From NCBI GenBank assembly GCA_964624045.1, contig CAZUXC010000001.1, forward strand, positions 24,662-88,661: a DNA stretch of 64,000 nucleotides, given 5' to 3'. Below, piece by piece: positions 460 to 11,240 of the stretch. The notes beneath the pieces were generated by a model. That model saw nothing but the letters and a program-made list of their open reading frames with translations, did no database searches and was not told the DNA's origin. The DNA comes from an uncultured Methanospirillum sp. Its GTDB lineage: Archaea > Halobacteriota > Methanomicrobia > Methanomicrobiales > Methanospirillaceae. How positions within the stretch are numbered: the stretch's first letter is position 1; every line of letters starts with the position of its first letter. The position numbers and the translations under genes were made by a program.

Positions 460-1041
460 TTATTTTCCATTTGAGTTCCAGTTACCTGAAAGAAGGTAAT
501 CAGGGTTAAATAAGGCAGTCAAGCTAAATACGAGGTTTTTTGACTTTTCTTCATCAATTATGGTCTGGATCATATCCTTAAAGTCAATCCAGACCACCTC
601 ATCACTCCCTGAAACAAATTTTCGGCTCGATTGACCGAGAAAACCCTCTATCGAAAATGAGAAAAATCCTATCATATAGTTACTCTGGACCTGCCCCCCA
701 CTCATATCGAGCCAGGTGACTTGATCATCAGGAACTTCCATAATTCCATATACCTCATCCACCACCATTCCAAACCGGGTCGCGGCCTGACTATCAGGAA
801 CAAATACGATCACTTTCTTTTTTGTTCCCTCCCCGGCAAGAGGAATAATAAGCCTGATGTCAATTACTTTCACCACATCACTGCGAAGATTAAAGACACC
901 GGGAATATAATCCGGGGCATTGGGGAGAGGAATCTTCTGCTGATCCGGGACGATTTCCCTGATAAAATCAACATTTGCTGCATAGATCCCCTCTCCCAGT
1001 GAAAAGAGGAGTAACCGGTGTGACTGGGCAGTTTTATCCAT
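460..1041 (-). CDS. cheW: CheW-like chemotaxis coupling protein
   Basis: LLLFSLGEGIYAANVDFIREIV, IPLPNAPDYIPGVFNLRSDVVKVID and FGMVVDEVYGI are CheW motifs. Start moved to ATG 1041 (MDKTAQ), preceded by GAGG. Confidence 0.8.
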   Translation of the reverse strand: MDKTAQSHRLLLFSLGEGIYAANVDFIREIVPDQQKIPLPNAPDYIPGVFNLRSDVVKVIDIRLIIPLAGEGTKKKVIVFVPDSQAATRFGMVVDEVYGIMEVPDDQVTWLDMSGGQVQSNYMIGFFSFSIEGFLGQSSRKFVSGSDEVVWIDFKDMIQTIIDEEKSKNLVFSLTALFNPDYLLSGNWNSNGK

Positions 1042-1241
1042 ATCCTCTATCTCATCCCCCAATTGTCCGGTGGCTATCAAGTGCCGGAGAGCAGGAATGA
1101 TCTGATATTAGCCATAAAGCAGGATAGACCTTTTGTTTCCCTCATCCATCTTCATGAGTATCACAGCCGAGGGGAAGGTATCAATACCGTAAAGATACAC
1201 AGATCAGAACATACGTCTCAACATAGAGACGAGGGGAAGAG

Positions 1242-1772
1242 ATGGAAGAACTCCTCACACTGGTGGAAATTCAATTGGGGAAAGATCATTACCTTATCGA
1301 TAGTGATATCATTGATAAATTTATTCAGCCAGTGGAGGCGACTGAGGTGTATGATGCCCCCCCTTATATCGAAGGGATGATCAACTGGAGTCAGGGTATG
1401 ATCCCAGCGATAAATGTTGCACCACTCCTGGGTATGGACAGGGCAAAAGAATCAAAACGAAAACGAACGATGATTCTCCCTGCTGGAAAAATTGCTGATG
1501 TTGCGATGGCCGTATCCGTGGACGAAGTATACCAGGTCAGAAAAATTGAACCCGCCGCAGTGATGCCAGTGGATATTTCTGCCTGCCAGGGAATTGAGGA
1601 TTACGTAAAAGGGATCGTCAGAATCAGAGAAGAAGAAGGACAGCAGATGGTGTTGTTGTACCTAAATCTTCAAAAGATGTTAAGGGAACTTTTGAAAGGG
1701 CGGATTGCAGAACCAGTCCCTGATTTCTATGTGTGGCGCTGGAACACCGATGCTTCAATAACGGCAGAATAG
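1242..1772 (+). CDS. cheW: CheW-like chemotaxis coupling protein
   Basis: EVYDAPPYIEGMINWSQGMIPAINVAPLLG and VAMAVSVDEVYQV match the CheW core. Confidence 0.8.
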   Translation: MEELLTLVEIQLGKDHYLIDSDIIDKFIQPVEATEVYDAPPYIEGMINWSQGMIPAINVAPLLGMDRAKESKRKRTMILPAGKIADVAMAVSVDEVYQVRKIEPAAVMPVDISACQGIEDYVKGIVRIREEEGQQMVLLYLNLQKMLRELLKGRIAEPVPDFYVWRWNTDASITAE

Positions 1773-1836: not shown

Positions 1837-3087
1837 ATGGTGTGGACTGCTCTCTCTCTTGATACCTGGCTCTCGCGTCAGCAGGAGACCCTCACAAATG
1901 TTTCCAGCGCTGTTCAGTCAATTATTGACGAGGTTGCTGAAGGAGGAGATTCCGCTCTTTTTGATCTCTGTGAGCGGTTCGACAAAATTCGACCTCAGGC
2001 CCTCCGGGTATCAAAAGAGGAGATAAAGGCTGCATATGGATCAGCAGATCCAGCAATTGTTAAGGCATTGCAGGAGGCGCATGAACGCATCAAGATGTTC
2101 CATGAGCAACAATGCCAGAAAGATCTCTGGTTGACAGAAAGTGGACCTGGAGTCACCCTCGGAGTAAAAACATCCCCGCTTGAGCGTATCGGGATGTATG
2201 TTCCAGGAGGTCGCGCAGCATACCCCTCTACCGTATTAATGTGTGCAGTTCCAGCCCAGGTCGCCGGAGTTGAAGAAATAGTCTGCTTCACCCCCCCACC
2301 AGCTAATCCTCTCACCCTGATTGCTGCAGACATTGCCGGCGTCCATGAGATTTATACCGTGGGAGGAGCGCAGGCAGTGGCAGCAATGGCACTGGGAACA
2401 GAGACCATCAAACCCGTCCAAAAGATCATCGGACCGGGTAATGCGTATGTAACTGCGGCCAAAATGGCTATGAGAACCAAAGTTGAGATTGATTTCCCTG
2501 CTGGACCTTCTGAAATAGCCATTATTGCAGATCAGACCGCTCGTCCGGATTTCATAGCAGCAGACATTCTTGCCCAGTCTGAACATGATCCCCAGGCAGC
2601 ATCAGTTCTCATAACCACTGACTCTGCTCTTCCGGGAAAAGTTGGAGTCTGGATTGAAGAACTATTGAAACAGTCTCCACGAAGAGAGATCATCATCCAG
2701 GCTTTGAAACAGTCAGGATACCTGGTGGTATCCGACCTGAATGAAGCAATACGGGTATCAGATCGAATCGCACCTGAACACCTATCAATCCAGGTTGAGG
2801 ATACCCTTTCAGTTCTCCAAAAAATCCGGAATGCAGGATCGATTTTTGTTGGAAAATATGCTCCGGTTGCTTGTGGTGATTATGCATCAGGAACGAATCA
2901 TGTTCTTCCGACGGCAGGTAATGCACGTTTCTTCTCCGGCCTTAACGTGGCTCATTTTACCAAAACCTCAACAGTGCAGATAATTACTCGGGAAGGGATT
3001 GATACAATTGGAGACATCGTTGAGAAACTCGCAACCGCCGAAGGTCTGCATGCCCATGCTGCTTCAACAAAAATCCGAAGAGATTGA
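1837..3087 (+). CDS. hisD: Histidinol dehydrogenase
   Basis: [56 protein letters not shown]. Confidence 0.97.
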
Positions 3088-3095
3088 CCACCGGA

Positions 3096-4394
3096 TTAAA
3101 ACCGGATCTCCATAACCGCTTTTTCTTCTTCGTTAAGCATCTCCTGAAGATGTCGTGTCTCTGGTTGATACAAACCCATTGGATCATAATCCGGATAGAG
3201 ATCACATTTATCCAGTACATCCACAAACTCCTTGAGAAAGAGACGGGGAATAACATCAATCCGCCCTCCAAATGCTGAACTCACCCGGCTCACCATGATT
3301 CGGATGAACCGGTTGGATATGCGGTCATGGTCAACCTCGCCGTACGCCCGTTCATAGACATCGCAGACTTTCCGGGCTACTTCCTCAAGACGGGAAGGAT
3401 CAAACGGAGGTAAACAGATCTGAGGCTGTCGAGGGTTGGGATATCTTTCATCTGATGATATCTGCCCTATACGATCAAAGAGAGGCGTTATCGGCCTCAT
3501 CCCACGTGGGCCATCATAGAGCATGGGCGTTCCGGCACAAATGAGATACCACCCGGGAAGCAATCCTCCATCAACGGCATCAATAATTCTGACAAGATTT
3601 TGAAATCCCCGCTCACGAAGATTCCGGGGGAAGGTCTGGGTAATTTCAAGTTCATCAATCGCAACCACGCATCCCCGATACCCTGCTCCACGTATAAAGA
3701 TGGGAAGTGCCTGAAGAAGTGACATAACAGATGAGTCCTCAATATCGCCCCGTATTCCTGCCTTCTGTTTTAATTCACGCCCAATATTTGGATCCCCGGA
3801 GAGCCAGCCTATAGCTGCCTGAGAAATCCGAAAATTTGCTGCATTATTTGCAAGATAATAGGTCCTTATTACTGCTGCAACCGGAACGCTCAGAATACTG
3901 ATCGTTGAGAGCCCTTCCTCAATTTCCTGGATCGTAAGTTCTTCAAGTTTTGCAGGGGAAATGTCAGAACCCTCCCGGGCAATAACCCGCTCTTCGATCC
4001 CATAGAGCCACGCATCAATGATCGATCGAAATGCGTGTTGCTCTCCTCCGGCATGAAGAGAAGATAATATCTGTGCATATATTGAGCGGAGCCGGTGTAA
4101 TGGAGTTATGGGAGAGATCGCAATGTGTGCGGTGACAAAACCTTTCTTCCGGGCAAGTTCCAGAGCCCGGGCGATCAGAAATGTCTTCCCACTCCCATAT
4201 TCTCCCCGGATAAATTTGAGATCTGAACCACCACGGCTGACAAGATCCATCTGATCTGCTATCACCTGTTCTTCAACATCCAGGCCAACAGCAAAACGGC
4301 CAAGTCCCTGCGCTGGAACTGTCCCTCTCCGGAGTGCATTAATAATCCCAACACTCTCCAGAATATCTTGATTCGACAAGTCAGGGGCCGACAT
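3096..4394 (-). CDS. brxD: BrxD-like / DUF2791 P-loop ATPase
   Basis: INALRRGTVP..GL..FAVGLD N-terminal signature, Walker A IRGEYGSGKT, TPLHRL, Walker B VVAIDELE, C-terminal PRLFLKEFVDVLD. Start refined to ATG 4394 (MSAPDL), preceded by strong SD GGTGAGGTG and overlapping the upstream stop by 14 nt. Confidence 0.85.
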   Translation of the reverse strand: MSAPDLSNQDILESVGIINALRRGTVPAQGLGRFAVGLDVEEQVIADQMDLVSRGGSDLKFIRGEYGSGKTFLIARALELARKKGFVTAHIAISPITPLHRLRSIYAQILSSLHAGGEQHAFRSIIDAWLYGIEERVIAREGSDISPAKLEELTIQEIEEGLSTISILSVPVAAVIRTYYLANNAANFRISQAAIGWLSGDPNIGRELKQKAGIRGDIEDSSVMSLLQALPIFIRGAGYRGCVVAIDELEITQTFPRNLRERGFQNLVRIIDAVDGGLLPGWYLICAGTPMLYDGPRGMRPITPLFDRIGQISSDERYPNPRQPQICLPPFDPSRLEEVARKVCDVYERAYGEVDHDRISNRFIRIMVSRVSSAFGGRIDVIPRLFLKEFVDVLDKCDLYPDYDPMGLYQPETRHLQEMLNEEEKAVMEIRF

Positions 4395-6171
4395 ATCGAT
4401 ACACCTCACCAAATTCCGAGTATCCATCCTTCTCGATTAGATGAACACCATATTCTTCTGCTCGTCGCATAATCCGATTCATGAGTCCGGCAATCCGATG
4501 AGTTCCGGAGATTTTACGAAGATCCAGTTCATTACAGACCCTATGCTTCTGAAGATAGAAAATGATCATCTCTTCTTCTGGTGATAGCCACGAGAAGGAA
4601 GGAGATGAAAGTGGCACCTTCATGATGTGATTTTCCTGGTTTCGTTGATGAAGATATTCAGGGAGATGATCAGGGAGTGTCTGATCTTTACATGCGATGA
4701 GAAGAGCAAACAGGGTATTGGCAACCTGAACTGAATCGGCAGGAACAATTGATAAACCTGAAAGGGCAAAATCAAGCCCTTCATCCGGATGGCCACTCGA
4801 AAGGGCAGAATCAGATGCGATAGACAGAATTCTGGCATAGATTTCTTTTCCATCCATAGAGAGTGAAGTAATTCTCTCTGAAAGCCGATAGAGCATAAAT
4901 GCGATCACCTCATCATCACAGAGAGATAAGTCCAGAATTTTTTTTCCGATAAATGCGATATCCCGGGTATTTTTCAAAGTTTTCAGGATATACATCAGGG
5001 TTTTTGTCTGTTCCCTGGTTTCTCCTCTCCTTCCAAGATATAGAACATACTCAAAGCCGGACTTCACAAGATCAGATTTGAAGGCGGTGAAATACTGCCG
5101 CCGTGCATCTTCATGACGCCCGAGGCCTTCACATATTCGCCCAACGTCAGTTATTAAGGCCGGGTGGTGTTCTGATGATAAAAGAGAAAGCATATGGTCA
5201 CATGCCCCATGCAAGTCATACACCTGTTTTAACAGATCCTGATAAAGGGAGAATACCGATCTGATATCCGGATAATCAGCACTCTTCTCGTGAAAGAGCA
5301 TCTCTTCTGCTAAGGAGAGTGCATGCGGGCAGTTGCCAGCCGATTGAAATAGTGATACTCCCATCGCACGAAATTCGGGGCACGTACTTTTCGAAAGGTG
5401 AGACGACCAGAGCTCGCATGCTTCAGATAATCGACCCTGGAAGGACAAGAATGAGATATATCGTTCAATAGGATGATCGCCATCAACTGTTTCGATGAGA
5501 GAGATGAACTCCTGTTCGGCCATTACCGGGCTTGTGCCTGCAAGTGCTTCAGCATAAAGAAGCCGAATTTCAGGGTCAGTTCTGGCAGATGAGTTACCCC
5601 TATAAATCCGGATAATCTCGTCATACTGTCTGACAGAGGAGAGAAGAGAAACATACGATTTGACACACGAAATAGGGGATCCAGCCCTGATATATGCCAA
5701 CATTCCTTCCTGAGCGCGATCCAGAGCCAGGCAACAATTCATAAATGCGGATAGATCATCAGGGCAGGTATCCAGAGTTACAAGTTTTTTGAGAAGAGGG
5801 AATGCTGCTGCATTATCACCGGCATTCATGAGATACCGGATATACCCCCGGATAGCTTCCGGGTGATCCGGGGCAAGCCTGACTGCTTCTGCATATTCAG
5901 ATCTCGCTGATTCATCCAATCTTTTCTCAAGGATTTTTGCCAGATACAGGGAGATATCAACAGAAGATGGAACCCGGGCTTTGAGATCCCGCAGACAAAT
6001 CTCTGCTTCCTGAAATTCTTCAAGATTGTACAAACATACAGCTTCGAGAATTCTCACCGGTGTCGGACAGATATGGGGAGGTATCTTTCTGATGAGACTG
6101 CAGCACTCCTGGTACTTTCCTTGTTCAAAGAGGAGAAAGGTTCTGTTCTGAAGAGAATTACTATCATTCAT
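4381..6171 (-). CDS. TPR-repeat protein with C-terminal winged-helix domain
   Basis: TPR-like helical repeats (LYNLEEFQEAEICLRDLKARVP; YAEAVRLAPDHPEAIRGYIRYLMNAGDNAAA; CEGLGRHEDARRQYFTAFK). The last ~69 aa have a helix-HTH-wing pattern. Start refined to ATG 6171 (MNDSNS), in an ATGAATGA overlap with the upstream stop. Confidence 0.7.
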   Translation of the reverse strand: MNDSNSLQNRTFLLFEQGKYQECCSLIRKIPPHICPTPVRILEAVCLYNLEEFQEAEICLRDLKARVPSSVDISLYLAKILEKRLDESARSEYAEAVRLAPDHPEAIRGYIRYLMNAGDNAAAFPLLKKLVTLDTCPDDLSAFMNCCLALDRAQEGMLAYIRAGSPISCVKSYVSLLSSVRQYDEIIRIYRGNSSARTDPEIRLLYAEALAGTSPVMAEQEFISLIETVDGDHPIERYISFLSFQGRLSEACELWSSHLSKSTCPEFRAMGVSLFQSAGNCPHALSLAEEMLFHEKSADYPDIRSVFSLYQDLLKQVYDLHGACDHMLSLLSSEHHPALITDVGRICEGLGRHEDARRQYFTAFKSDLVKSGFEYVLYLGRRGETREQTKTLMYILKTLKNTRDIAFIGKKILDLSLCDDEVIAFMLYRLSERITSLSMDGKEIYARILSIASDSALSSGHPDEGLDFALSGLSIVPADSVQVANTLFALLIACKDQTLPDHLPEYLHQRNQENHIMKVPLSSPSFSWLSPEEEMIIFYLQKHRVCNELDLRKISGTHRIAGLMNRIMRRAEEYGVHLIEKDGYSEFGEVYRYVGP

Positions 6172-6856
6172 AAGAGAGCAGACCAAGGCGGAGCCGAATA
6201 AGCGTAGTGAACATCGAGAAGGCATCAGAAGGCTGAAGTCTTGAATCACCCGTATCATCCCAGACAGATGGCGTTTCAAACACCCGGAAGCCTGCTCTCC
6301 GGAGCTGCCAGAGGAGTTCAACATCAAATTCAAATCCTCTTGCACAAAGTTGAGGCATCACCCGATCAATAGCCTCTTTACGAAAAACCTTCGCACCACA
6401 CTGGGTATCATAGTAGGGAAGGGAGAAGAGTAGCCGGATGAGAAGATTAAATGCCCGACTCTGAAAACGGCGTAATAGTGGCTGATGGATCTTTATCTGA
6501 GATCCCGGCATATGCCGGGATCCAATAACCCCGTCATACACTCCCACCATAGATAGCAACCGGTGCATCTCCTGATATGGAGTGGAATTATCAGCATCCA
6601 TAAACCCGATAAGCGATGAAGTAGCTGCTCGAAAGCCTTCATAAACTCCTCCCCCTTTTCCAAGTCTATGATCATACGTCAGGCATCTTACGGTGAGATC
6701 GGGATGGGAATCCGCAAAATCGCGTATAACTTCAGGAGTTCTATCTGAACCATCACATACGAAGATAAATTCTGCCTCCGGGTCAGAAAGTGCTTTGAGC
6801 AGTCTTCCTATCCGATTCTCTTCATTGTATGCCGGTATAATGATACTATATTTCAT
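6164..6856 (-). CDS. GT2 glycosyltransferase, dolichyl-phosphate hexose synthase (DPM/Alg5)-like
   Basis: SIIIPAYNEE, DGSDRT, GKGGGV, FMDAD (DxD), GSR, DTQCGAKVFR, FEFDVELL. Confidence 0.88.
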   Translation of the reverse strand: MKYSIIIPAYNEENRIGRLLKALSDPEAEFIFVCDGSDRTPEVIRDFADSHPDLTVRCLTYDHRLGKGGGVYEGFRAATSSLIGFMDADNSTPYQEMHRLLSMVGVYDGVIGSRHMPGSQIKIHQPLLRRFQSRAFNLLIRLLFSLPYYDTQCGAKVFRKEAIDRVMPQLCARGFEFDVELLWQLRRAGFRVFETPSVWDDTGDSRLQPSDAFSMFTTLIRLRLGLLSYE

Positions 6857-6975: not shown

Positions 6976-7383
6976 TCATCGCAGCATAAATGATGCGCTA
7001 CAGCGTGCAAGTTCTGTCATTCCATCCTGACTCAAAATTTTCCCTTCGGTGAATATGATCTGTCGTCCTTTCCGGATAACTTCTGCATCCGCAATGATTG
7101 TTTCATCTGCCCTGACCCCGCGAAGAAAACTCGTTGTGCACGATATCGTAGCGATCATCTCCCCCTCGCGAAGAAGAGTGTAGATGGCAAGTGCCATACT
7201 CTCATCAACCAGAGCCGTATACATCCCGCCCTGCAGCCACCCTTCCCCATTAGTCATATCAGGACGAACTTTCATCTGAAGACGAGCCTTTCCGTCCCCC
7301 CAGGTAATCGGTTCGATCCCCATGAGACAAAAGAATGGATTTGCCTGCTGACCTTTCTGATTGATATCATCAAGATATGACAT
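6976..7383 (-). CDS. PaaI-family (hotdog-fold) thioesterase
   Basis: NGEGWLQGGMYTALVDESM, TISCTTSFLRGV, EVIRKGRQIIFTEG; ATG at 7383 preferred over TTG 7392. Confidence 0.85.
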   Translation of the reverse strand: MSYLDDINQKGQQANPFFCLMGIEPITWGDGKARLQMKVRPDMTNGEGWLQGGMYTALVDESMALAIYTLLREGEMIATISCTTSFLRGVRADETIIADAEVIRKGRQIIFTEGKILSQDGMTELARCSASFMLR

Positions 7384-7575
7384 CGTGTACAAGGCTTAAC
7401 CGGTCCGATGGAAAAATCTGACGGTACCTCCGGACATTTCAGCCATAGCAATTATTTCTTTCATTAGTCAGGAGATATTCATGAATAACCTTCGAGTACC
7501 TATCTTCTCCATACGATCGTCGGATATTAGAGGGATCATAACCAACTCTTCTGCTGAGTTTTCTGAGGGTAGGGT

Positions 7576-9159: not shown

Positions 9160-10076
9160 TGGTAAAAGTTGAGAAATTTATCACTGATACAATCCAGAAG
9201 ATCAAAGAGGAAGCAGGGGGAGAACACATCGTAATTGCACTCTCTGGAGGAGTCGACAGTTCAGTCTGTGCAGAGCTGGCATCCCGTGCAATTGGAGAAC
9301 GCCTGATTCCGATTTACGTAGATACCGGCCTGATGAGAAAAGGTGAAACCGCCCGGATTCGTGAAATATTCGACCACATAGGAGTCAGAGTTATTGATGC
9401 CAGTGAGGAATTTCTCTCGGCACTTGTTGGAGAAGCAGATCCGGAAAAAAAGCGCAAGATAGTGGGCGAGAAATTTATCCGCGTATTTGAACGGGAAGCT
9501 CGTTCAACCGGGGCTAAATTTCTGCTACAGGGCACTATCTATCCGGACTGCATCGAAAGTGAAGGCGGGATTAAAAGCCACCATAATGTCGGAGGAATGC
9601 CCCTTGCAATGGAGTTTTCCAAGGTTATCGAGCCACTTCGGGAGCTTTACAAAGATGAAGTCAGAGAAGTAGCTGAGGCACTTGGACTCCCGAATGAGAT
9701 CGCTCACCGGATGCCATTCCCAGGGCCAGGGCTTTCAGTCAGGGTTGTCGGAGCCATAACTCCAGAAGCAGTGGAAGTTGTCAGAGAAGCGAATGCCATC
9801 GTTGAGGACGTGTTGGTTGAAAAATACCGGCCTTGGCAATGTCTGGCAGCTCTTGTAGGTCTTGGAACCGGCGTAAAAGGAGATAACCGGCTGCACGGAT
9901 GGATCGTAGCAGTCCGGGCGGTGAATTCCCGGGATGGAATGACCGCGGATCCCATTGAAATCTCATGGGAGGATCTTGCTGAAATCCAGTCACGGATAAC
10001 GTCCGGGATCCCTGCAGTATCCCGGGTTGTATATGACATCACTCCAAAACCACCTGCAACCATCGAATACGAATGA
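9159..10076 (+). CDS. guaAB: GMP synthase subunit B (ATP pyrophosphatase subunit)
   Basis: [48 protein letters not shown]; no GATase domain (split archaeal enzyme). Confidence 0.95.
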
Positions 10077-10085
10077 GATGATAAT

Positions 10086-11240
10086 GTGAATACTGAGTCC
10101 GATTACCGGAAACTAGAATCCGAATATATTATGCCTGCATTCAGCAGGGAGATTATGATAACCAGAGGATCCGGATGCACTGTCACTGATGCTGACGGGA
10201 AGCAGTACCTGGATCTTGTAGCAGGGATTGCTGTCTGCAGTACCGGTCACTGCCACCCAAAGGTGGTAAAAGCTATTTCAAATCAGGCAGAAAGCCTGAT
10301 TCACTGTTCAAATCTTTATTACGTCCCCCATCAGGGAGAACTAGCCAAAAAACTTGTTGAAATATCAGGGTTTCCCGGAAAAGCGAAAGCCTTTTTTTCC
10401 AACTCGGGAGCTGAAGCTATGGAAGCAGCCCTCAAACTCGCCCGTGTAAGAACCGGGAAGAAGGAGGTAGTTGCATGTGAAGGAGGATTTCATGGAAGGA
10501 CAATGGGGTCTTTAGCCTGTACCCACAAACCTGCGATTCGGGATCCCTTTATGCCCCTCCAACCTTTCAGCAAGTTCGTTCCTTTCGGCGATATTGAAGC
10601 AATAAAAGCCGCTATCACTTCAGATACTGCAGCAGTCATACTGGAACCGGTACAGGGAGAGGGAGGGGTGATCACCCCGCCAGTCGGATATCTGAAAAAG
10701 GTAAGAGAAGTGTGTGACGAGAACGATGTTCTCTTAATCCTAGATGAAATTCAGACCGGCATGGGCCGCACAGGCAAATGGTTCGCATACCAGCAGGAAG
10801 GAGTAATCCCCGATATTGTTACAATTGCAAAAGGAATTGCAAGTGGATTTCCCATGGGTGCAATTATTGCACGAGAGGGGCTTGAATTCGGGAAGTCTGA
10901 ACATGGTAGTACATTTGCCGGGGGCCCTGTCGCTTGTGCCGTGGCTCTTGCTACAATCGAGGTTATCGAGGAATGTCTTCCTGATGTGAAAGGAAAGGGA
11001 GAAAGATTCAGAGCAGCTCTCGCTGATCTGCACCCCCGGGTGAACGGTCTTATGATTGGCATCTCCATCGGAGACAACTGTGGAACTATCCAGAAAGAAT
11101 GTGCAGCTCAGGGACTTCTGGTCAATTGTGCAGCAAATGGGAATCTCCGGCTGGTCCCGCCACTGACCATCACCAATGCCGAGATTGATCAGGCAACAGA
11201 GATTATCAATGCAACAGTCAGAAAATTCGCGAATTCGTGA
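10086..11240 (+). CDS. argD: Acetylornithine aminotransferase (class III PLP)
   Basis: YLDLVAGIAV, FSNSGAEAMEAALKLAR, FHGRTMG, EPVQGEGG, DEIQTGMGRTG, AKGIASGFP, HGSTFAG. GTG start. Confidence 0.93.
   Translation: MNTESDYRKLESEYIMPAFSREIMITRGSGCTVTDADGKQYLDLVAGIAVCSTGHCHPKVVKAISNQAESLIHCSNLYYVPHQGELAKKLVEISGFPGKAKAFFSNSGAEAMEAALKLARVRTGKKEVVACEGGFHGRTMGSLACTHKPAIRDPFMPLQPFSKFVPFGDIEAIKAAITSDTAAVILEPVQGEGGVITPPVGYLKKVREVCDENDVLLILDEIQTGMGRTGKWFAYQQEGVIPDIVTIAKGIASGFPMGAIIAREGLEFGKSEHGSTFAGGPVACAVALATIEVIEECLPDVKGKGERFRAALADLHPRVNGLMIGISIGDNCGTIQKECAAQGLLVNCAANGNLRLVPPLTITNAEIDQATEIINATVRKFANS

Follow-up and report, generated by a model that had tools for sequence, protein, structure and literature searches.

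The window analysed here is the whole 64,000-nucleotide stretch C1:24662-88661 of a 3.95-Mb Methanospirillum assembly (G000, 99.9% complete), and its subject is a pair of minus-strand genes that encode a BrxD-type AAA+ ATPase of the ORC/Cdc6 clade (3096..4394, 432 aa) and, directly upstream, a partner in which tetratricopeptide repeats (TPR) are followed by a domain of the winged helix-turn-helix (wHTH) type (4381..6171, 596 aa). The two products probably belong to a three-component ATPase-helicase machine encoded at two loci, which would be a methylation-free offshoot of the PglZ-BrxD-BrxHI part of type-2 bacteriophage exclusion (BREX) systems. The trio is vertically inherited, fixed in three families of Methanomicrobiales, and dispensable.

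The reading frame of the ATPase ends with a stop at 3096 and contains intact Walker A (GEYGSGKT) and Walker B (IDELE) motifs. Its first ATG, at 4427, would give a protein of 443 aa; the ATG at 4394 (432 aa, MSAPDL...) is favoured by the orthologue alignment A2, in which close relatives begin MQAPDIS.... The partner gene extends from an ATG at 6171 to a TGA at 4381-4383 and overlaps the start of the ATPase gene by 14 nt (4381-4394). A Shine-Dalgarno-like element, GGTGAGGTG, can be read from the sequence at 4402-4410 on the same strand, 7 nt 5′ of the brxD ATG and within the TPR coding sequence, and the two genes are translationally coupled. Downstream of the pair, hisD (1837-3087, plus strand) is convergent and ends 8 bp from the ATPase stop. 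Upstream, a co-directional family 2 glycosyltransferase (GT2) gene (6164-6856, minus strand), which overlaps the TPR start by 8 nt, is probably the promoter-proximal gene of the TPR-BrxD run; a gene for a 4HBT/PaaI-type thioesterase (6976-7392) comes next, and pyrG and guaA are further neighbours. The first-pass annotation of this DNA had described the pair, its coordinates, the 14-nt overlap, the Shine-Dalgarno element, the intact Walker motifs and the hisD, GT2 and PaaI neighbours, all of which are confirmed on the sequence.

The BrxD-type ATPase

The ATPase matches PF10923 with 375 bits over profile positions 8-412 of 414, and its score of 376 bits on the NCBIfam model BREX_BrxD (NF033438; cut-off 350) is that of a full-length BrxD. 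On the PADLOC models, it scores 379 bits as BrxD versus 135 bits as SngB. The earlier assignment to the DUF2791/BrxD type is borne out by these three sets of scores. In alignment A2, which contains 18 orthologues and has a mean column identity of 67%, residues G67, G69, K70, T71, D247 and E248 are invariant, as are motifs other than Walker A and B. The literature places BrxD among the ORC/Cdc6 AAA+ ATPases, in a tight dyad with the helicase BrxHI and with a proposed function as helicase loader, and the fold of the clade includes an HEH insert, an arginine finger and a C-terminal helical bundle (PMC12839542). A sequence search of the PDB with the window protein detected no relative.

The closest bacterial BrxD proteins (37-40% identity) are sited in canonical PglY-PglZ-BrxD-BrxHI loci, and in the tree the BrxD proteins of Methanomicrobiales are monophyletic and sister to bacterial BREX-2 BrxD. 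The archaeal orthologues carry the NCBI name 'BREX system ATP-binding protein BrxD', though their genomes are without BREX, and many JGI records label them 'adenosylhomocysteinase', which is a clear mis-annotation.

The TPR-wHTH partner

Pfam TPR families match the N-terminus of the partner, and the partner profile also matches TPR chains in the PDB. The AlphaFold2 (AF2) model of the full protein has a mean predicted local distance difference test score (pLDDT) of 89 and a predicted template modelling score (pTM) of 0.74, and three parts can be distinguished. The fast-evolving 'head', residues 1-498 (4678..6171, minus strand), is a TPR-like alpha-solenoid of approximately 30 helices, or 15 hairpins, with the modelled hairpins spanning residues 3-498. 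It is followed by a flexible linker, residues ~499-530 (4582..4677, minus strand), which is variable in length and sequence; its residues 500-523 have a pLDDT below 50 in the model and lie in gapped, unconserved columns of the TPR alignment A1. The C-terminal three-stranded wHTH, residues 531-596 (4384..4581, minus strand), is the best-conserved part of the protein and carries the motif GTRRvaGxxNRLIrK ... GExGEvYxY. Residues 531-593 are modelled as H1-b1-H2-H3-b2-b3 with pLDDT above 90, and the isolated tail is modelled with the same fold, again above 90. In Foldseek searches, every top match of the wHTH was a winged helix (Nse1, cullin WHB, MarR, ScpB, Z-beta), and the solenoid gave generic matches to TPR scaffolds (Ctr9, OGT, Ski3, Naa15 and APC subunits).

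A profile built from the wHTH tails of 37 TPR proteins was searched against 1.84 billion representative proteins, with E-values calculated for the whole library. Beyond the TPR family, it matched the extreme C-termini of proteins of 830-1030 aa that fit the PADLOC PglZ model PDLC02565, and also the C-terminus of a 587-aa beta-helix protein (P0176), with E-values from 5e-10 to 5e-5. The PglZ-like tails were matched over their last 65-70 residues (E 8e-8 to 5e-5), and five such proteins score 609-751 bits on PDLC02565, on which the canonical Rhodococcus BREX-2 PglZ scores 705 bits. Type-2 PglZ is known to end in a three-stranded wHTH (PMC12839542). As judged by these profile matches, the winged helix of the partner shows detectable homology with the C-terminal tails of a subset of type-2-like PglZ proteins. 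The earlier proposal that a TPR protein takes the place of PglZ is accordingly upheld, both by the position of the gene directly upstream of brxD and by this homology. A hidden Markov model (HMM) of the TPR-protein C-terminus, when compared with six-frame open reading frames (ORFs) of its own genome and of 11 BREX-2 loci, matched only itself.

In two other proteins, P0182 (445 aa) and P0185 (480 aa), the match to the type-2 PglZ model is confined to its final ~110-125 positions (~785-905 of 910), after which comes an adaptor-type wHTH. Both may represent additional 'headless' or re-headed partners of BrxD.

Linkage, distribution and descent of the pair

Linkage was examined in 80 BrxD-centred loci taken from genome contigs, in which the archaeal loci were found through the BrxD alignment and the upstream gene was then read. 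The TPR gene lies directly upstream of brxD in all 79 archaeal loci, which come from Methanospirillum, Methanoregula, Methanolinea, Methanocalculus, Methanocorpusculum and other Methanomicrobiales, and it is absent from the single bacterial locus. Likewise, wherever they occur among 60 relatives, the genes for the TPR protein and the BrxD orthologue are invariably neighbours. The conserved TPR-BrxD linkage that the first reading had proposed to look for in other genomes is thus strict. When the TPR protein itself was the query, a related-locus search with the single sequence found no relative, a 20-sequence TPR alignment had no stretch conserved enough for scanning, and a homologous-protein search, the sensitivity of which is limited by its word index, gave 3 matches only.

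The order pyrG-guaA ... 4HBT-GT2-TPR-BrxD-(variable)-hisD is preserved across families. In an order-wide survey of 218 Methanomicrobiales genomes of at least 90% completeness, a single-copy BrxD orthologue was present in 146, corresponding to approximately 96% of the genomes of three families and to none of those of the other families. In a sample of the phylum that comprised 301 genomes (104 genera), the TPR-wHTH protein was confined to the same three families, with no score between 540 bits and the cut-off of E = 1e-25. This distribution contrasts with that of SngB-like matches, which are scattered over about 9 of 61 genomes in the pattern usual for defence systems. The pair shows none of the marks of a defence island or mobile element: its synteny is with housekeeping genes, it is monophyletic, its trees are congruent with those of the hosts, and it is a single-copy trait structured by family.

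Three pair-negative Methanospirillum genomes, one of which is a complete genome of 3,544,738 bp, are collinear with the window and have GT2 abutting hisD. The TPR-BrxD pair is therefore a discrete, dispensable cassette. Because GT2 stays in place in these genomes, it is not a functional member of the module; in one family, moreover, a PAS histidine kinase is found in its stead. A conserved third gene beside the pair was likewise rejected, the downstream genes varying by lineage (an OB-HD protein, TPR proteins, small unknowns, a thymidylate-synthase-like protein).

In the family labelled f3 (f1, f3 and f6 are labels internal to this analysis), a protein of ~320 aa with an OB-fold and an HD domain is encoded directly downstream of and co-directionally with BrxD (L054 10441-11403, L055 10485-11462, L057 6780-7742), and the gene upstream of the pair in place of GT2 encodes a multi-PAS hybrid histidine kinase of 1730-1860 aa. 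The Pfam scan of this family covered the L054 proteins, and those of L055 and L057 were taken as equivalent from their size and position. In another locus (L051, from the complete 2.09-Mb genome G026), BrxD at ~9400-10726 comes in two pieces that differ in frame, an N-terminal one of 83 aa and one of 387 aa, and is either frameshifted or mis-assembled; the helicase described in the next section is present in this genome.

An unlinked BrxHI-like helicase

The proposed third component is a BrxHI/Lhr-like superfamily 2 (SF2) helicase of 699 aa, which is encoded at G000:C1:302868-304964, between thioredoxin and subtilase genes and about 275 kb from the pair. It scores 444 bits on the PADLOC BrxHI model versus 317 bits on SngC, canonical BrxHI scoring 996; its motifs I, II, III and VI are intact, and it matches no NCBIfam equivalog. 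Orthologues are recognized at E ≤1e-92 and are separated from paralogous Lhr proteins, which appear at E ≥1e-61. The genome search for an Lhr/BrxHI-like helicase that had been recommended on first inspection was thus successful. The same inspection had found neither pgl genes nor a helicase in the 64 kb; this holds for BrxHI-like helicase matches, all of which lie outside the window, and for PglZ and a protein of BrxC/PglY size it extends to the whole genome, but a helicase is encoded elsewhere on the same contig.

Of the 35 pair-positive genomes among 61 relatives, 32 have the helicase, the three misses being metagenome-assembled genomes (MAGs) of 64-79% completeness; none of the 26 pair-negative genomes has it. 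Among the 218 genomes of the order, 143 have both BrxD and the helicase, 3 have BrxD only, 2 have the helicase only (both MAGs, 90-91% complete) and 70 have neither, so that presence or absence is concordant in 213 (Fisher p ~1e-50, uncorrected for phylogeny). In two of the three BrxD-only genomes, which are small single-contig genomes of family f6, the pair appears to be damaged: in G084 (L174 3383-6458), the TPR gene is cut off ahead of the wHTH and stops interrupt BrxD, and in G080 (L175 4490-7578), BrxD is frameshifted. The helicase orthologue is absent from both.

The pair-negative Methanospirillum genomes also lack the helicase cleanly, with thioredoxin abutting subtilase. In a species tree based on five flanking proteins, pair-negative genomes fall into two separate, well-supported clades, and at least two independent co-losses of both unlinked loci have therefore occurred. 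The helicase tree is monophyletic for Methanomicrobiales and has nearly the internal topology of the BrxD tree, and both trees mirror that of the hosts. This co-occurrence, co-diversification and co-loss give strong support to the earlier suggestion that a helicase may act in trans. They also remove the labels 'orphan' and 'minimal two-gene' module that had been applied to the pair, because the unit comprises three genes, which lie at two loci.

The separation of the two loci is general. The distance between helicase and pair in complete genomes ranges from 46 kb to over 1 Mb, and the helicase comes within 6 kb of BrxD in none of the 79 archaeal loci; at the bacterial BREX-2 locus L142, the helicase adjoins BrxD and is 32% identical to the archaeal helicase over residues 5-671. 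The thioredoxin gene upstream of the helicase was considered as a further member and excluded, because it stays when the helicase is lost. In another Methanospirillum genome (G001; L154 4410-6110), a DDE transposase gene (PF01609) lies between the thioredoxin and helicase genes, and the helicase ORF is intact.

Rates of evolution

The ratio of nonsynonymous to synonymous substitution rates (dN/dS) was estimated from one close genome pair with dS ~1, and hence the values are comparative only. BrxD has a dN/dS of 0.028 (94% amino-acid identity), the TPR protein 0.156 (69%) and the helicase 0.161 (72%), as compared with 0.03-0.10 for seven neighbouring genes (86-95%). All three genes are under purifying selection and are maintained, and the TPR protein and the helicase share the same elevated rate, which is approximately five times that of BrxD by dN/dS.

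Relation to type-2 BREX and Shango

The genome contains exactly two PF10923 proteins of ~440 aa each, namely the window BrxD and the SngB of a Shango system, and no PF10923 protein of BrxC/PglY size. No match to PglZ (PF08665) was found in this 99.9%-complete genome. The lack of both PglZ and a BrxC-sized protein means that there is no BREX system in the genome; PglX and PglW, which were not searched for individually, adjoin neither the pair nor the helicase. Shango, which consists of the TerB protein SngA, the DUF2791 ATPase SngB and the DEAD/DEAH helicase SngC, is a validated anti-phage system (10.1101/2022.11.11.516204), and a complete canonical copy lies outside the window on contig 17, 49655-56350 (L003 7154-13850, minus strand), with SngB at 532 bits, SngC at 751 bits and an SngA bearing TerB_N, TerB and TerB_C. 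Since nothing is missing from this system, which has an SngB of its own, the window ATPase is not a displaced member of it. Its SngA is unusually long (1055 aa), with TerB domains only in the C-terminal two thirds, and is accompanied by an SngB of 440 aa and an SngC of 728 aa; directly upstream of the system are ORFs of 1036 and 186 aa that have no Pfam or PADLOC match.

The resemblance of the trio to type-2 BREX involves all three proteins: the ATPase passes the BrxD equivalog cut-off and is sister to BREX-2 BrxD, the TPR-wHTH gene occupies the position directly upstream of brxD that pglZ has in BREX-2, the C-terminal three-stranded wHTH of the partner is detectably homologous to the type-2-like PglZ tail, and the co-inherited helicase is closest to BrxHI by PADLOC score. 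On the other hand, the module has neither the PglZ phosphatase domain nor BrxC/PglY, its head is a TPR solenoid, its helicase gene is unlinked instead of forming an adjacent BrxD-BrxHI dyad, and it is vertically fixed in archaea, whereas BREX-2 is mobile and has been reported in 1309 taxa, with no archaea among them (PMC12839542).

With Shango the trio shares a logic, in which a non-enzymatic head is combined with an ATPase of the DUF2791/BrxD family and an SF2 helicase of Lhr-like type, while both a methyltransferase and a nuclease are lacking. It differs in that its head is a TPR-wHTH protein without TerB, TerB_N or TerB_C, the ATPase scores higher as BrxD than as SngB (379 versus 135) and the helicase higher as BrxHI than as SngC (444 versus 317), and the genes do not form a single operon; the HMM of the TPR-protein C-terminus did not match the SngA of the same genome. 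The trio is therefore a member of neither Shango nor BREX-2, because it has no PglZ domain, BrxC, TerB or operon.

An analogy, and only an analogy, can be drawn with the Ski2-Ski3-Ski8 complex, in which a long TPR superhelix is the scaffold for a Ski2/Lhr-type SF2 helicase; BrxHI has been classed as Ski2-like (PMC12839542), and Ski3 is among the matches of the model. The TPR similarity is generic (TM 0.2-0.4) and without sequence homology, and the Ski complex is eukaryotic, acts on RNA and has no AAA+ loader. A full-text literature search found no paper on a TPR partner of BrxD or on a split BrxD-helicase module.

A model for the trio

According to the interpretation that we consider most likely, the trio originated as an offshoot of the BREX-2 arrangement in which a TPR head took the place of the PglZ body and the helicase gene was relocated. 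The winged helix would couple the TPR head to BrxD, to nucleic acid, or to both, and the TPR head would select the nucleic-acid substrate. By analogy with what has been described for the family (PMC12839542), ATP-bound BrxD would oligomerize and then load or activate the helicase. Since the trio has no conserved nuclease alongside it, the helicase itself may act as effector.

Several observations weigh against this interpretation. A comparison of the wHTH with 11 mainly actinobacterial PglZ tails by hhalign gave no similarity, which means that the detectable homology is limited to a subset of PglZ proteins. The genome counts are phylogenetically non-independent and represent approximately five or more independent events and not 218. 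In the third BrxD-only genome (G200, 94% complete), the pair is present and no helicase orthologue was found. The broken genes of G080 and G084 may be real pseudogenes, but they may also stem from errors in long-read assembly. The branching of the archaeal helicase relative to BrxHI and SngC has a support of 0.025. Finally, a stable split is unusual, since the parts of a machine are usually encoded together, and the helicase could also have an independent role.

Alternative explanations of function

What the trio acts upon is a separate question from its composition. One answer, to which we would give slightly less than an even chance, is that it is a domesticated or ancestral genome-maintenance machine, in which the pair serves as loader and adaptor for an Lhr-like repair helicase on the DNA or RNA:DNA hybrids of the cell itself, such as stalled forks and R-loops. 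Such a role would suit the core-gene behaviour of the trio, which is vertical, syntenic and single-copy (146 of 218 genomes) and co-diversifies with the host, as well as its split loci and the very strong conservation of BrxD (dN/dS 0.028). In both archaea and bacteria, helicases of the Lhr family function in DNA repair and the processing of forks (PMC7437997, PMC5758891), and the otherwise widespread paralogue aLhr2 is absent from Methanomicrobiales (PMC8301817). The three other families of the order and several large-genome Methanospirillum species nevertheless do well without the trio, no repair genes are linked to either locus, and the nearest homologues are all associated with defence.

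The last of these points leads to a second answer, which we hold to be plausible without favouring it, namely that the trio is a lineage-fixed immune system against viruses or plasmids and that the TPR head senses a viral protein. All three parts have their nearest relatives in BREX-2 and Shango, both of them validated defence systems (10.1101/2022.11.11.516204), the lineage can dispense with the module and has lost it repeatedly, and the TPR head and the helicase evolve faster than BrxD and all the neighbours, as expected with a counter-evolving partner. A dN/dS of 0.16, however, is purifying overall and not diversifying, and no effector nuclease or toxin accompanies the trio. The trio is also single-copy, near-universal and syntenic throughout three families, with no sign of horizontal transfer; its setting is one of housekeeping genes and not a defence island, and unlinked parts are rare for defence systems, whereas the genuine Shango ATPase is scattered in the same genomes (~9 of 61). 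The earlier label of 'defence or stress module' is therefore unproven, this vertical, syntenic and single-copy pattern being atypical for defence.

It is very unlikely that the pair is a self-sufficient two-gene defence or stress module, consisting of a TPR sensor and BrxD, that needs no helicase. The translational coupling and strict linkage of the two genes, the lack of a helicase within 6 kb in any archaeal locus and the pair of G200, which has no detectable helicase orthologue, could be read in this way. They are outweighed by the shared presence or absence of pair and helicase in 213 of 218 genomes, by at least two clean joint losses and by the broken BrxD of two of the three helicase-less genomes; furthermore, BrxD and SngB are paired with a helicase in every characterized context (PMC12839542; 10.1101/2022.11.11.516204), and neither protein of the pair has a recognizable effector domain. 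A partnership with GT2, in which the TPR scaffold and the ATPase would regulate envelope or S-layer glycosylation independently of nucleic acids, can practically be dismissed: the 8-nt overlap of GT2 with the TPR start, its place directly upstream in most loci across families and the resemblance of the solenoid to the OGT TPR domain (one of its generic matches) are set against the intact GT2 where the pair is deleted, which largely refutes the idea, the PAS histidine kinase in its place in one family, the absence of GT2 from Methanocorpusculum-type loci, the tracking of the helicase and not GT2 by the pair, and the homology of the wHTH to the BREX-2 PglZ tail.

Implications

Whatever its target, the module is the same motor as in BREX-2 and Shango, stripped of the methyltransferase, phosphatase, kinase and TerB parts, and it therefore isolates the ATPase-helicase function with one adaptor protein. 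We tentatively suggest that a BREX-2-type motor has been exapted here as a core-like genome-maintenance machine, or that the archaeal trio represents the ancestral source of the ATPase-helicase arm of BREX-2 and Shango. If either is true, an Lhr-like helicase would have in BrxD a dedicated loader of the ORC/Cdc6 type, the TPR head would pick substrates of the cell itself (stalled forks, R-loops), and the parts would lie at separate loci like ordinary replication and repair factors; the trio would then provide the first functional handle on the mechanism of BrxD-BrxHI and SngB-SngC.

The small winged helix of the PglZ tail travels with BrxD onto an unrelated TPR head. The trio also suggests that a module of the defence type can become fixed and pass vertically through the full depth of an archaeal order, and that functionally coupled parts can lie hundreds of kilobases apart. 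In such cases, operon-based tools (PADLOC, DefenseFinder) and neighbourhood surveys would report an orphan BrxD. The presence/absence polymorphism within Methanospirillum provides natural comparison strains.

On the far side of hisD from the pair are two divergent CheW-domain genes (460-1080, minus strand; 1242-1772, plus strand), which are unrelated to the module and are kept in the synteny of Methanospirillum.

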